Source of the DNA: an uncultured Spirochaetia bacterium | GTDB taxonomy: Bacteria; Desulfobacterota_D; UBA1144; Nemesobacterales; CSP1-2 | DNA: 62,635 bases | Direction: 5' to 3' | Assembly (NCBI GenBank): GCA_964636885.1 | Contig: CAZWVA010000001.1 | Span: 52,228 to 114,862, forward strand | Shown: positions 3,965 through 13,428 of the stretch, in pieces | How the letters are laid out: each line of letters begins with the position of its first letter | Position numbering within the stretch: the stretch's first letter is position 1 | Notes under the pieces: generated by a model | Told to the model about the DNA's origin: nothing | Databases searched by the model: none | Seen by the model: only the letters and a program-made list of their open reading frames with translations | Program-made: the position numbers and the translations under genes

Positions 3965-4294
3965 CTAGACGACTTTTTTGATTATCCTTTCTATCTCGCT
4001 CTTTGGGACGGCTCCTATTATTTGGTCCACTGCTTTTCCGTCCTTAAATAGAATAAGGGTAGGGATACTCCTTATCCTATATCTCATCGTGACTTCCTGG
4101 TTGTCGTCAACGTTTAGTTTTCCTACCTTGAGTCGCCCGTTGTAGGAGGCTGCGATCTCCTCTACCACAGGGGCTATCATCCTGCAAGGGCCACACCAGG
4201 GGGCCCAGAAGTCAACCAAAACCGGTGTATCGCTCTTTAAAACCTCGCTTTCAAAGGTTGAATCGCTTAACTCTACTATCCCTGCGCTTCCCAT
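3965..4294 (-). CDS. trxA: Thioredoxin
   Basis: WCGPC active site, SIPTL cis-Pro loop. Confidence 0.95.
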
Positions 4295-4327
4295 TATGAC
4301 GTCTCCTTAGGGGTATTTGATACCGTT

Positions 4328-4357
4328 ATTATATCTGAATCCAGAGGTACGCTTCAA
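4328..4357 (-). promoter_or_regulatory. sigma70-type promoter of trxA
   Basis: TTGAAG-18nt-TATAAT on the minus strand. Confidence 0.6.
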
Positions 4358-4413
4358 GGACAGAGGTTAGCCGGTAGACCGGTTATAGACCGTGATTCTT
4401 GATTCCGACACAC

Positions 4414-4442
4414 TTGTATTTTTCGAGTTTTCCTGTTATGAT
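4414..4442 (+). promoter_or_regulatory. sigma70-type promoter of hppA
   Basis: TTGTAT-17nt-TATGAT, ~205 nt upstream of the hppA ATG. Confidence 0.6.
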
Positions 4443-4477
4443 TCCCATCCCTAAAACCGAGATATAGCTCTCCAAAA

Positions 4478-4620
4478 GGGATTGGGCTTAGATTTGTTTC
4501 CATATAGATCTAGGACGAAGAGGAAAGCGATACCCGCTTATAGAGTCGGGTCTATGGGTTCAAAGCCAAAACTAGAGGAGGAGGGATTTCCCCTCTCCTA
4601 ACAAATATAAGCCTATCACC
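4478..4620 (+). ncRNA. Putative structured cis-regulatory leader RNA (unassigned family) upstream of hppA
   Basis: Closing stem 4485-4498/4600-4613 (13 of 14 pairs), internal hairpin with K-turn-like GA/GA motif, hairpin 4576-4599. Confidence 0.5.
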
Positions 4621-4647
4621 ATAGAAGGAGAAGGAAAGGAGGAGAAC

Positions 4648-6768
4648 ATGGAGTTTGGCCACGTGTTGCTTGTGATTGTCTTAGGCATAAGCGTGCTTTC
4701 CCTTGCTTTCGCTGGTTACCTGGCTAGGTTTGTGCTTAGCCACGATATGGGAACCTCGGCGATGCAGGAGATAAGCAACGCTATCAAAGAGGGTGCCGAG
4801 GCCTTTCTAAAAAGGCAGTACTCAACCATAATAATGCTGAGTATAGTTCTGGCCGCCCTTATCTTCGTACTCTACTGGTTTGCAAAGGGTGATCCTGACA
4901 TGGCTTGGCGTACCACGGTAGCCTTTCTCTTCGGCGCTGGGTGTTCGGCCCTTGCAGGATATATTGGAATGTGGATCTCAATAAGATCAAACATCCGTAC
5001 GGCGAGTGCGGTTAGATCGAGTCTCGATAGGGCTCTTAAGATATCGCTCCGCGGTGGGGCGGTTTCAGGGATAACGATCGTTGCTATGAGCCTTCTTGGA
5101 GTGGGAATCCTTTTCGTTCTCTACGGTGGATCTTCTAGCGATCCAGAGATCTTAAAAAGGGTTCCATTTTTAATCGTGGGATACGGGTTCGGGGCGAGCT
5201 TCGTTGCGCTTTTTGCCCAGCTTGGTGGCGGTATATATACGAAGGCGGCCGATGTAGGAGCGGACCTAGTGGGTAAGGTGGAGGCCGGGATCCCTGAAGA
5301 TGACCCCAGAAACCCTGCGGTTATAGCTGATCTTGTAGGGGATAACGTGGGCGACTGTGCGGGTCGTGGCGCGGACCTCTTTGAATCCACGGCCGCCGAG
5401 AATATAGGGGCGATGATCCTGGGGGTTGCGCTTTTCCCCCACTTTGGTATAAAGGGGATTCTGTTTCCTCTAGTCGCCCGTGCGTTTGGACTCATTGCCA
5501 GTATGGTAGGAATCGCAACCGTTGGGTTAAAGGACGACAGGGAAGACCCGATGTCGGCCTTAAACCGCGGCTACTACATAGCATGTGTTTTGGCCGCCAT
5601 AGGGTTCTATGTAGCCACCTACTTGCTGCTAAATAACAACCTCTGGCTCTTCCTAGCTGGCGTCATCGGAATCGTGACGAGTATAGTATTCGTCTATATC
5701 ACACAGTACTACACGGAGTATAGATACCGTCCTGTGAAGTTTATCGCCGAGGCGTCTCAAACGGGCCCCGCCACAAACATAATAGCCGGTCTCTCTGTCG
5801 GACTTGAGTGTACGGCCCTTCCCGTAATCGTGATATCGGCCGCCCTGGTTGGGGCGTTCTACTGTGGTGTCTATGGACTTAAGGGGTTTACAGACATTTC
5901 TACAACAGGTGCCGGGCTTTACGGAACCGCTATCGCCACCATGGGAATGCTTGGAACGGCCGCTTACATACTTGCCGAGGATACCTTCGGTCCTATAACC
6001 GATAACGCCGGTGGTATAGTTGAAATGAGCAAGCAGCCAGAGGAGATCAGGAATAAAACGGACAGGTTAGACGCCGTTGGAAACACCACGAAAGCCCTTA
6101 CAAAGGGATACGCAATCGGCTCTGCGGCCCTTGCGGCGTTTCTGCTTTTCTCGGCGTATCTCGATGAGGTGACTCATCTTACGGGTCAGGCCTTCCACTC
6201 CGTTGATATAGCCAAGGTGGAGGTGTTTGTGGGAGGCCTCCTCGGAGCGATGCTCGTTTTTCTGTTTAGTGCCCTTGCTATCCGAGCCGTTGGACGAGCG
6301 GCTTATTACGTGATAAGCGACGTTCGTGCCCAGTTTAAGGAAAATCCCGGAATACTCCAGGGGACCTCAAAACCGAATTACGCAAGGTGCGTCGATATCG
6401 TTACAAAGGGTGCACTAAAGGAGATGGTCCCTCCGGGGATACTTGCCGTCGCCATGCCCATAGTAGTTGGACTGATATTCAAGCAGTTTGGTCTCGGTGC
6501 TGAGACCGTAGCGGCGCTTCTTATGGTCGGAACAATAGGGGGTATCCTAGTTGCGACCATGATGAATAACGGTGGCGGGGCATGGGATAACGCAAAGAAG
6601 TACATTGAAACCGGTATGTACGGTGGGAAGAGGTCTGAAACCCATAAGGCCGCAGTTGTGGGAGATACGGTGGGCGATCCTTTTAAGGATACGGCTGGCC
6701 CTTCGATTCACGTCCTTATAAAGCTCCTCTCCACTATCACACTCGTTCTTGCTCCGCTCTTTATCTAG
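4648..6768 (+). CDS. hppA: Membrane-bound proton-translocating pyrophosphatase, K+-independent type
   Basis: GGGIYTKAADVGADLVGKVE, DNVGD, GGAWDNAKK, GDTVGDPFKDTAGP motifs; GNTTKA (Lys) determinant. Confidence 0.95.
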   Translation: MEFGHVLLVIVLGISVLSLAFAGYLARFVLSHDMGTSAMQEISNAIKEGAEAFLKRQYSTIIMLSIVLAALIFVLYWFAKGDPDMAWRTTVAFLFGAGCSALAGYIGMWISIRSNIRTASAVRSSLDRALKISLRGGAVSGITIVAMSLLGVGILFVLYGGSSSDPEILKRVPFLIVGYGFGASFVALFAQLGGGIYTKAADVGADLVGKVEAGIPEDDPRNPAVIADLVGDNVGDCAGRGADLFESTAAENIGAMILGVALFPHFGIKGILFPLVARAFGLIASMVGIATVGLKDDREDPMSALNRGYYIACVLAAIGFYVATYLLLNNNLWLFLAGVIGIVTSIVFVYITQYYTEYRYRPVKFIAEASQTGPATNIIAGLSVGLECTALPVIVISAALVGAFYCGVYGLKGFTDISTTGAGLYGTAIATMGMLGTAAYILAEDTFGPITDNAGGIVEMSKQPEEIRNKTDRLDAVGNTTKALTKGYAIGSAALAAFLLFSAYLDEVTHLTGQAFHSVDIAKVEVFVGGLLGAMLVFLFSALAIRAVGRAAYYVISDVRAQFKENPGILQGTSKPNYARCVDIVTKGALKEMVPPGILAVAMPIVVGLIFKQFGLGAETVAALLMVGTIGGILVATMMNNGGGAWDNAKKYIETGMYGGKRSETHKAAVVGDTVGDPFKDTAGPSIHVLIKLLSTITLVLAPLFI

Positions 6769-12138: not shown

Positions 12139-13428
12139 ATGCGACTAAACCTGATACTCCGTGCACTGTGTTATAGGAACTACCGTCTGTTCTTTGTCGG
12201 CCAGAGCGTCTCGCTTATCGGTACCTGGATAACGCAAATAGCAATGGGCTGGCTGGTGTATAGGTTAACCGACTCTGCACTGCTACTAGGAGTGGTTGGG
12301 TTTACGGGTCAAATCCCTATATTCCTTTTAACCCCCTTTGCCGGTGTCTTGGTTGATAGATGGAACCACCGTCGTATCCTGGTTATCACTCAAACGCTTT
12401 CAATGGTGCAGTCCCTGACTTTGGCGGTTCTTACTCTGGGCGGTGTTATTACCGTTTGGCATATAGTCCTATTGAGCCTATTTCAGGGTTTAATCGATGC
12501 CTTTGATATGCCCGTGCGCCAATCCTTCATAGTGGAGATGGTGGAGAATAGAGGCGATCTCGGAAACGCCATAGCTTTAAACTCATCTATGGTAAACGGT
12601 GCCCGTCTCCTCGGGCCTTCCGTAGCCGGGGTTTTGATAGCCACCGTGGGTGAAGGGATGTGTTTTCTCATTGACGGCATTAGTTATCTCGCTGTAATCG
12701 CGGCCTTATTGTCTATGAGGATCACGGTAAAGGAAGCAAAAACCGAGAATACACATGTCCTACGTGGTTTAAGGGAGGGATTCTCCTATGCCTTTGGCTT
12801 TGCACCCATAAGGTCCATCCTGCTCCTCGTTGGTTTGGCGAGTCTCGCTGGAAGGCCGTATCTGGTTCTAATGCCGGCCTTTGCCTCAGCCGTGCTCCAC
12901 GGGGGGCCTCACACCTTTGGTTTCCTTACCGGGGCTTTGTGGGGGGCGATCTATCTTGCATCGCGTAGAAGCGTTCGTGGGTTGGAAAGGGTGATAGCAA
13001 TTGCTACGGGTATATTTGGTGTTGGGCTCATTACTTTCTCTTTATCACGTGTTTTTTGGCTTTCTTTTCTACTGATGCTACTTACCGGTTTTGGTATGAT
13101 GTTACAGATGGCATCGAGTAACACGGTCTTACAGACCATAGTGGACGATGATAAACGCGGGCGAGTAATGAGCCTTTACTCGATGGCCTTTAGGGGTATG
13201 GAACCCTTTGGCAATCTGTTGGCCGGGGGACTAGCCAGTAGGATAGGCGTGTCGGACACCCTACTTATAGGGGGGATCCTCTGTATCGTGGGCTCTATAT
13301 TGTTTGCGAGAAGGCTCTCAGTGCTTAGAGAGATGGTTCGTCCGATCTACGTGAGAAAGGGTATCATTCCGGAGGTGACAAGTGGGATCCGGACGGCAAC
13401 TGGATTAAACGCTCGACCCGAGGGTTAA
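12139..13428 (+). CDS. MFS transporter (DHA3/transmembrane secretion effector-like)
   Basis: 12-TM pattern, GVLVDRWNHRRIL motif A, DDDKRGRVMS. Confidence 0.85.
   Translation: MRLNLILRALCYRNYRLFFVGQSVSLIGTWITQIAMGWLVYRLTDSALLLGVVGFTGQIPIFLLTPFAGVLVDRWNHRRILVITQTLSMVQSLTLAVLTLGGVITVWHIVLLSLFQGLIDAFDMPVRQSFIVEMVENRGDLGNAIALNSSMVNGARLLGPSVAGVLIATVGEGMCFLIDGISYLAVIAALLSMRITVKEAKTENTHVLRGLREGFSYAFGFAPIRSILLLVGLASLAGRPYLVLMPAFASAVLHGGPHTFGFLTGALWGAIYLASRRSVRGLERVIAIATGIFGVGLITFSLSRVFWLSFLLMLLTGFGMMLQMASSNTVLQTIVDDDKRGRVMSLYSMAFRGMEPFGNLLAGGLASRIGVSDTLLIGGILCIVGSILFARRLSVLREMVRPIYVRKGIIPEVTSGIRTATGLNARPEG

Follow-up and report, generated by a model that had tools for sequence, protein, structure and literature searches.

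A lineage-restricted, structured mRNA leader upstream of a membrane pyrophosphatase gene in Dadabacteria-like bacteria

The pyrophosphatase locus, its promoter and the predicted fold of its leader

The window analysed here, a 62.6-kb stretch of DNA, carries a gene for a membrane-bound ion-translocating pyrophosphatase that starts at the same methionine as those of its relatives in the protein alignment. An earlier reading of this DNA, made from the letters alone (hereafter the sequence-only reading), named the product an H+-pyrophosphatase; whilst the profile match bears out a membrane pyrophosphatase, the proton specificity is not established, with the matching NCBIfam entry labelled sodium-translocating. 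The other border of the 353-nt intergenic region is formed by a divergent thioredoxin gene, and a promoter-like site on the minus strand at 4357–4328 (TTGAAG, 18 nt, TATAAT; 10 of 12 matches) lies in a position that suits this gene. The genes and the features between them are as follows.

3965–4294, − strand: thioredoxin gene, divergent and outside the element (Pfam PF00085, E = 1e-34)
4414–4419, + strand: −35 hexamer TTGTAT of the predicted pyrophosphatase promoter, read from the sequence, in a block aligned in 16 of 16 relatives
4434–4442, + strand: extended −10 element, TG (4434–4435), one base, then TATGAT (4437–4442), read from the sequence and conserved in the alignments
4449–4480, + strand: H1, predicted hairpin at the transcript 5′ end, CCCU 4449–4452 with AGGG 4477–4480, in the best fold and centroid
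4483–4498, + strand: P1 5′ arm (UGGGCUUAGAUUUGUU), inside the most conserved block of the leader, ~4476–4520
4503–4556, + strand: P2, predicted long irregular hairpin, window-specific, stem 4503–4516/4545–4556 and tip 4525–4529/4535–4539
4512–4526, + strand: R1, first purine-rich tract, partner of the pyrimidine tract in relatives (RNAalifold consensus, 10 leaders)
4557–4567, + strand: small 4-bp hairpin GGUU/AGCC, in the best fold and centroid, absent from the sequence-only reading
4576–4599, + strand: P3, predicted hairpin AGGAG.AGGG/CCCU.CUCCU, pairs 4576–4585/4591–4599
4600–4615, + strand: P1 3′ arm (AACAAAUAUAAGCCUA), pairing with 4483–4498 in the best fold and centroid
4621–4647, + strand: A/G-rich ribosome-binding region, GGAGG core 4638–4642, 5 nt before the ATG, outside the folded domain
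4648–6768, + strand: membrane-bound ion-translocating pyrophosphatase gene, 706 aa (Pfam PF03030, E = 3e-262; NCBIfam NF001953, 1078 bits)

Related loci were found with the N-terminal alignment as protein query, giving upstream DNA from ~20 distinct relatives, cited by locus handle (L081, L092 and so on) where they must be told apart. The pyrophosphatases of the relatives are 80–92% identical and are named Thermodesulfobacteriota or Candidatus Dadabacteria in protein searches; a query with the full-length pyrophosphatase gave relatives of at most 72% identity among the matches listed. Six of the loci (L095, L096, L175, L377, L384, and L383) are treated together as group B.

The sigma70 promoter proposed at 4414–4442 has its elements at these positions, with a spacer of 17 nt between the −35 and −10 hexamers, and agrees with a sigma-70-type promoter in its hexamers, its spacing (16–18 nt expected), and its conserved position. 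A simple scan missed this promoter, as the −35 hexamer matches at three of six positions where the rule demands four. In the alignments, the predicted promoter lies 180–232 nt 5′ of the ATG in 17 of 17 leaders (the window and 16 relatives), in the form TTGTAA with TATGAT or TATCTT in window-type leaders, and TTGACA with TACTGT in group B. The long 5′ leader that had been proposed, lying behind this conserved promoter, is supported, with 4444–4647 expected to form the 5′ untranslated leader of the pyrophosphatase mRNA, transcribed from the promoter at 4414–4442, and we infer from the promoter sequence a transcript start at ~4447–4450.

The 17-nt promoter spacer itself (4420–4436, TTTCCGAGTTTTCCAGT) is near-invariant against L081, L091, L169, L170, and L172 despite saturated silent sites, which is unusual and may reflect an operator overlapping the promoter. 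Just 5′ of the promoter lies a weak terminator-like hairpin on the + strand (4380–4392, CGGTTATAGACCG followed by a T-rich tail), which could insulate the promoter from + strand transcription arriving from upstream.

Folding of 4449–4625 yields a minimum-energy structure that is identical to the centroid and to the model of the sequence-only reading, plus one extra hairpin. The predicted energy is −52.2 kcal/mol (z = −1.96; 8 of 200 shuffles equally stable), with a separate shuffle set giving z = −2.5, and on addition of the ribosome-binding region (4444–4660) the best structure differs and z is only −1.29. The first observation of a folded leader thus stands with moderate statistical strength. 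P1 as originally drawn (4485–4498/4600–4613) is paired at 13 of 14 positions, and dinucleotide shuffling of 4444–4647 produces a 14-nt stem this good (13 or more Watson-Crick pairs) in 3 of 300 cases (~1%); the helix may be extended by pairing of 4616–4620 with 4478–4482. The alternative pairing suggested for the 5′ end is likewise present, with 8 of 9 positions paired between 4444–4452 and 4477–4485. The elements of the proposed three-way junction are found at their coordinates, but the junction itself is four-way once the hairpin at 4557–4567 is counted, and it is not conserved as drawn.

H1, considered as a 5′-terminal stabiliser, starts at the inferred transcript start, and its stem, only 4 bp long, is kept in relatives. 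Judged by eye, the alignments mostly show C-G as its outer pair, with U-G taking that place in the L081 type and U-A in L249, and its inner stem (4459–4462/4469–4472) is variable and is deleted in L249.

Two further observations concern the letters of the leader. On the minus strand, 4595–4578 reads as a terminator-like hairpin with a T-run; it is simply P3 and the + strand AAAAC after it seen in complement, and the site does not coincide with the end of any minus-strand gene. Additionally, 4553–4570 is complementary at 17 of 18 positions to 12793–12810 (minus strand; BLAST E = 0.067), with the leader side falling in the non-conserved middle, and this match is probably due to chance.

Distribution of the leader and selection on its sequence

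The sequence-only reading could not match the leader to any of the RNA consensuses that it considered, and covariance-model searches agree. Rfam 15, whose families include SAM, lysine, TPP, FMN, c-di-GMP, c-di-AMP, T-box, 6S, M-box, DUF1646 Na+, and nhaA-I Li+, gave no hits in the whole window at the gathering threshold, only two viral chance matches far below threshold on 4250–4720 at E up to 10, and no hits in eight related loci at E up to 1. Neither a riboswitch nor a leader for a membrane pyrophosphatase is reported in the open literature searched. We conclude that 4444–4647 is a real, previously undescribed, lineage-restricted structured mRNA leader.

A terminal inverted repeat had raised the idea of a repeat or mobile element (MITE or REP-like), which was rejected, with no second copy present in the 62.6-kb window by BLAST, by pattern search with three mismatches, or by covariance model; the model built from 10 leaders has a single hit in the window. 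Among 185,579 species-representative genomes, a 23-nt pattern of the 5′ box (the conserved block at ~4476–4520) occurs in five, once in each and always 5′ of the pyrophosphatase gene. Four of these genomes are labelled Dadabacteria, and the fifth is a metagenome-assembled genome labelled Spirochaetia, a label regarded as mistaken, that holds the same pyrophosphatase locus. A degenerate 17-nt version of the pattern was too unspecific to use, its matches being mostly chance. These searches show the leader to be restricted to one gene in one lineage, that of Dadabacteria-like bacteria. The gene 5′ of the pyrophosphatase varies between loci, being a rhomboid gene in L249, and since the upstream neighbour differs in some loci, the conserved element travels with the pyrophosphatase gene.

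At four-fold silent sites, the window gene and its relatives are 0.32–0.44 identical, which amounts to saturation, and the lineages compared over the conserved block of the leader are saturated at 0.35–0.45. The region 4410–4527 nevertheless aligns with nine relatives (ten loci) at 73–78% identity (E 1e-11 to 1e-22), and the first ~85 nt of the leader are ~75% identical among relatives, whilst the DNA 5′ of the promoter gives no alignment between the window and the relatives. Given this high identity against saturated silent sites, and the lack of alignment upstream, the comparison of sequences shows the leader, and its 5′ part in particular, to be under purifying selection. Conservation is unevenly spread, with identities between lineages of 0.68–0.84 over the stretch that begins with the H1 3′ strand and includes the first purine tract, 0.12–0.49 in the middle of the leader, and 0.46–0.67 in the pyrimidine tract and P1 3′ arm; the leaders compared comprise only ~5–6 independent lineages. 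The fold z-scores of 20 related leaders average −1.46 and are negative in 17, with the leaders of L081, L091, and L172 no more stable than their shuffles.

P1 is found in 10 leaders (the window, L081, L091, L172, L169, L170, L249, L089, L171, and L173), pairing at 13–15 of 16 positions with a conserved two-base internal loop. Across these leaders, 97.9% of P1 cells are paired, compared with 20–64% when the partner is slid by 1–3 columns. The sequence-only reading had made conserved or covarying structure in homologous leaders one of its tests; complementarity of P1 is conserved in the 10 leaders, but none of them carries a compensatory double substitution, so strict covariation is absent. By hand count, ~9 substitution events keep pairing through G-U wobble, with changes of C to U on the 3′ arm and A to G on the 5′ arm, and 3 events break it, where random substitution would keep pairing in 25–50% of cases (binomial p roughly 0.002–0.07). 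Furthermore, the sub-lineages have different sequences in the outer extension of P1, each of them complementary: GGAUUG/CAAUCC in L171, AGG/CCU in L169, GUCU/AGAC in the L081 type, and GGGAU/AUC-CC in the window. RNAalifold recovers P1 when limited to the 10 P1-bearing leaders; with L092 and L254 added (12 leaders), in which the 3′ arm is respectively absent and diverged, almost no consensus remains (−1.5 kcal/mol). As a comparative result, the conserved complementarity supports P1 as a real long-range helix, and the 5′ hairpin is likewise supported.

The same substitutions bear on whether the constraint acts on RNA or on DNA. An operator or second promoter formed by the 5′ box together with the promoter spacer, with the complementarity of the 3′ box either incidental or a sign of two inverted operator sites, would account for the unusual conservation of the spacer, for a 5′ box conserved base by base with no covariation, and for the A/T-rich palindromic pieces within that box (CCAT-N8-ATGG and TTTAAA). 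The bias towards wobble is, however, meaningless for DNA binding: G-U pairs exist only in the + strand transcript, so that ~9 kept against 3 broken pairs favour a constraint at the RNA level, and the outer extension of P1, which changes between sub-lineages and still pairs, likewise speaks against a DNA element. We regard such an element as unlikely.

A short upstream open reading frame is a far weaker explanation, and one that we consider very improbable. It would begin at a TTG (4482 or 4494), and its translation, rather than the peptide, would remodel the leader; the frame GLGLNLFP(F/Y)(K/R)L is indeed open for 16–64 codons in all 10 P1-bearing leaders, with the window frame from the first TTG running from 4482 to 4601 on the + strand (39 codons). 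Neither start has a well-spaced Shine-Dalgarno sequence (spacings of 0 nt at TTG 4482 and 12 nt at TTG 4494), C-termini and lengths are unrelated between relatives, and the conserved part shows the same degree of conservation at all three codon positions, where silent sites elsewhere are saturated. A functional leader peptide at 4482–4601 was accordingly rejected, given the codon-position pattern and the unrelated C-termini.

The junction interior, the ribosome-binding site and the sister lineages

The interior of the domain is far less constant than P1. P2 and P3 are predicted in the window as first described, but they are not conserved, with 63% and 55% of their respective pairs kept across 12 leaders and the P2 tip deleted in 6 of the 10 P1-bearing leaders (L081, L091, L172, L169, L170, and L249). 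This deletion also removes the 3′ arm of the K-turn pattern (GAC-GAA-GA ... GA-GUC) noted in P2. The letters of the window (4514–4521 and 4543–4547) do fit a simple K-turn motif, having a 3-bp GAC/GUC stem, a GAA bulge of 3 nt, and tandem G-A and A-G pairs; unlike a conserved K-turn, it has lost its opposing strand and tip in 6 of 10 relatives, with the other three not retaining the GA/AG arrangement. A K-turn at 4514–4547 was thus rejected as a window-specific pattern of letters in a region that is deleted or different in relatives.

The 3′ strand of P3 (4588–4599) coincides with a pyrimidine-rich tract that is present at this position in all relatives. In the window, this tract prefers the adjacent, window-specific purine run (P3), whereas relatives use the first purine tract instead, with RNAalifold on the 10 leaders continuing P1 by a helix between 4513–4524 and 4588–4599. 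In this helix, 84.4% of cells are paired, compared with 70.1% for shuffled and 47–71% for slid partners, and nine pairs change on both sides. It is weakened by having been picked by RNAalifold on the very alignment that then served to test it, and by the ability of the purine tracts to pair with the pyrimidine tracts in many registers, and in the window three of nine pairs are A-C mismatches; pairing of the pyrimidine tract with the first purine tract is better than shuffled only in L089 and L171. When the 5′ half of each leader is compared with its 3′ half, complementarity is significant against shuffles in group B and some relatives, whilst z is 0 in the window and positive in L081, L091, and L172, because purine and pyrimidine tracts pair in any order.

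The sequence-only reading also saw complementarity between the P3 3′ strand and the purine-rich region before the ATG, and suggested a translational switch. The complementarity is there, at 10 of 12 positions, but nothing specific speaks for masking of the ribosome-binding site: across 14 leaders its predicted accessibility is the same as in controls with shuffled leaders, and shuffled tracts of equal composition pair with the Shine-Dalgarno region just as well as the pyrimidine tract does. On both of these null results, the masking idea rests on base composition only. In 5 of the 14 leaders the ribosome-binding region is predicted to be more open than in 85–95% of the shuffled controls, and P1 in the window ends 27 nt before the Shine-Dalgarno core, leaving it uncovered. 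The scan for intrinsic terminators found none on the + strand of the leader 3′ of the promoter, the only + strand site being that at 4380–4392, upstream of the promoter. Neither form of riboswitch expression platform, a terminator or a masked ribosome-binding site, was therefore found.

Several sister lineages have arrived at other structures. L092, with a pyrophosphatase ~92% identical to that of the window, nevertheless lacks the P1 3′ arm and has a strong local hairpin instead, and strong local hairpins also take the place of P1 in L254 (pyrophosphatase ~87% identical) and in L093/L094. The leaders of group B have a closing helix of their own, GGAUAG/CUAUCC, which shows 95.8% pairing and one compensatory change; within these leaders, the complementarity of the 5′ half to the 3′ half reaches z = −3.7 to −4.7 against shuffles. 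The covariance model built from the 10 P1-bearing leaders finds those ten and a weak partial hit in L092 (E = 0.48), with no hits in group B or in more distant pyrophosphatase loci. What the lineages have in common is a stable, closed 5′ domain that ends ~25–30 nt before the start codon, and no particular junction architecture.

A separate observation in L092 (~1040–1065 and 1175–1200) is that its 5′ box (UUAAAUCU and CCUGUCU) is complementary over 15 bp to the Shine-Dalgarno region (AGAUAGGAGGAUUUAA). If formed, this pairing would be a different, directly masking arrangement.

These comparisons weigh heavily on the small-molecule or ion riboswitch that the sequence-only reading had in mind, in which the junction closed by P1 would bind PPi, an ion, or a nucleotide and toggle access to the ribosome-binding site. 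Such a switch would be in keeping with a conserved, structured leader whose junction is closed by P1, with a pyrimidine tract complementary to the ribosome-binding region, and with a weak local hairpin, in competition with P1, that the 5′ box can form and that is strong in lineages without P1; with no known family matching, it would constitute a new class. One would expect the architecture of an aptamer to be retained, however, so that its loss in the equally close L092, L254, L093/L094, and group B counts against a riboswitch, as does a junction interior that varies in both length and sequence, with its 12-nt deletion and its unconserved P2 and P3. The leader additionally lacks a terminator and any detectable evolved masking of the ribosome-binding site, it precedes one gene in one narrow lineage, and no riboswitch of membrane pyrophosphatases is described in the open literature searched. 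Given the loss of architecture, the lack of a detectable expression platform, and the confinement to a single gene in a narrow lineage, a riboswitch appears improbable, slightly more so than a DNA element, and nothing links the leader to the sensing of PPi, ions, or energy status that had been proposed.

Proposed function and comparison with known systems

The reading that we favour, at a probability of about 0.45, is that the leader acts in cis at the RNA level to affect translation or the stability of the mRNA, and that some partner recognises the 5′ box. In this proposal, P1 (4483–4498/4600–4615) would close an RNA domain with a small hairpin at its 5′ end, the pyrimidine-rich tract would be held within the domain, and the ribosome-binding region (4621–4647) would lie outside it, with the leader influencing translation initiation, mRNA lifetime, or both. 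The near-invariant 5′ box (~4476–4520) would be recognised or switched by a macromolecule acting in trans, either a protein or a small RNA, rather than by a small-molecule ligand. The RNA-level function, the trans-acting partner, and the regulatory output are all inferred.

The main rival to recognition at the RNA level is a passive structural role, which we hold to be distinctly less probable, although well ahead of the other alternatives. A passive leader would protect the transcript from 5′-end-dependent decay and keep pyrimidine-rich segments off the ribosome-binding site, giving constant high expression with neither switching nor a partner. This is consistent with H1 beginning at the inferred 5′ end, with a ribosome-binding region that lies outside the domain and is predicted to be more open than most controls in 5 of 14 leaders, and with lineages reaching a closed or stable 5′ structure through different sequences, whether P1, the local hairpins of L092, L254, and L093, or the group B helix. 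The structures of the sister lineages fit a generic need for structure as well as they fit a specific regulator. A passive role leaves unexplained, however, why the 5′ box retains 70–84% identity at saturated neutral divergence, why it is more conserved than its pairing partner (46–67%), and why P1 shows no compensatory changes despite ample time.

A further reading makes the 5′ box a switching sequence that exchanges P1 for the local hairpin, or for the ribosome-binding site as in L092, and back upon a signal. We consider this reading unlikely, to much the same degree as a DNA element. If true, it would represent a new Dadabacteria-restricted class of sensor for a ligand, ion, small RNA, or protein, tuning an ion-pumping pyrophosphatase to energy or ion status.

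Well-characterised leaders offer partial parallels to both active and passive readings. The 5′ leader of E. coli ompA, which encodes a highly expressed membrane protein, is stabilising, and combines a hairpin at the extreme 5′ end with a structured body and an open ribosome-binding site. The pyrophosphatase leader is similarly long, with a predicted 5′-end hairpin at the inferred start and a structured body before an open ribosome-binding site; in contrast to this likeness in layout, there is no sequence or structural homology, and a stabilising effect of the pyrophosphatase leader is putative. The rpoS leader contains a long inhibitory stem that is opened by small RNAs. As in rpoS, sequence close to the ribosome-binding site pairs over a long range with an upstream arm, and that arm is better conserved than the strand opposite it, in keeping with a segment that has two alternative partners; unlike the rpoS stem, P1 in the window does not cover the Shine-Dalgarno core, with only the 5′ box of L092 pairing with the Shine-Dalgarno region.

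Membrane pyrophosphatases couple the hydrolysis of PPi to ion pumping, and nothing in the literature searched describes how bacteria might control the genes for them at the RNA level. The leader is therefore best seen as a concrete candidate for such control in an uncultivated lineage, and as a candidate RNA family absent from Rfam, of a value limited for now by the narrow lineage, the few independent sequences, and the lack of strict covariation.

The closest counterparts by type are the orphan leader motifs described by Weinberg et al. 2017 (PMC5737381), which share with the present leader a conserved structured 5′ region upstream of one gene family, a closing helix, conserved unpaired or boxed nucleotides, and the lack of a known ligand. 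The pyrophosphatase leader differs from these motifs in being absent from Rfam 15, in comprising ~10 distinct sequences from one candidate lineage, and in having a main helix with no strict covariation; the main text of Weinberg et al. does not touch on pyrophosphatase. The Na+ riboswitch (DUF1646 motif) and the Li+ riboswitches (nhaA-I/II) are leader RNAs that control cation-transport genes (PMC9337991, PMC9646797), a functional analogy for the ion sensing that the sequence-only reading suggested for a leader of an ion-pumping pyrophosphatase. The resemblance, a leader preceding an ion-pumping gene, is one of analogy only, and in contrast to members of those classes the pyrophosphatase leader has no match to a covariance model (E up to 10 for the window leader and up to 1 for eight related loci); the Na+ riboswitch paper makes no mention of pyrophosphatase.

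Minor observations were also made in the flanks and leaders of the related loci. Gene order around the pyrophosphatase is fluid: in bacterium HR37 (L083), an IS605 TnpB-like fragment lies directly 5′ of the pyrophosphatase and a serine recombinase gene 3′ of it (1334–1858 and 4408–6136), and in L081 (4588–6121) and L082, genes for an EcoRV-like restriction enzyme and a D12-class methyltransferase lie 3′ of it. A three-codon mini-ORF (ATG AAG AAA TAA and variants), of which the window leader has no equivalent, occurs in group B leaders ~53–56 nt before the ATG, with sites in L093 (1145–1156), L094 (301–312), L383 (498–509), and L097 (151–162), and also in L095, L096, L175, L377, and L384. In L384, both the start and the stop are changed and still read as a start and a stop (GTG ... 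TGA), both changes being A to G and preserving wobble pairs in a hairpin.
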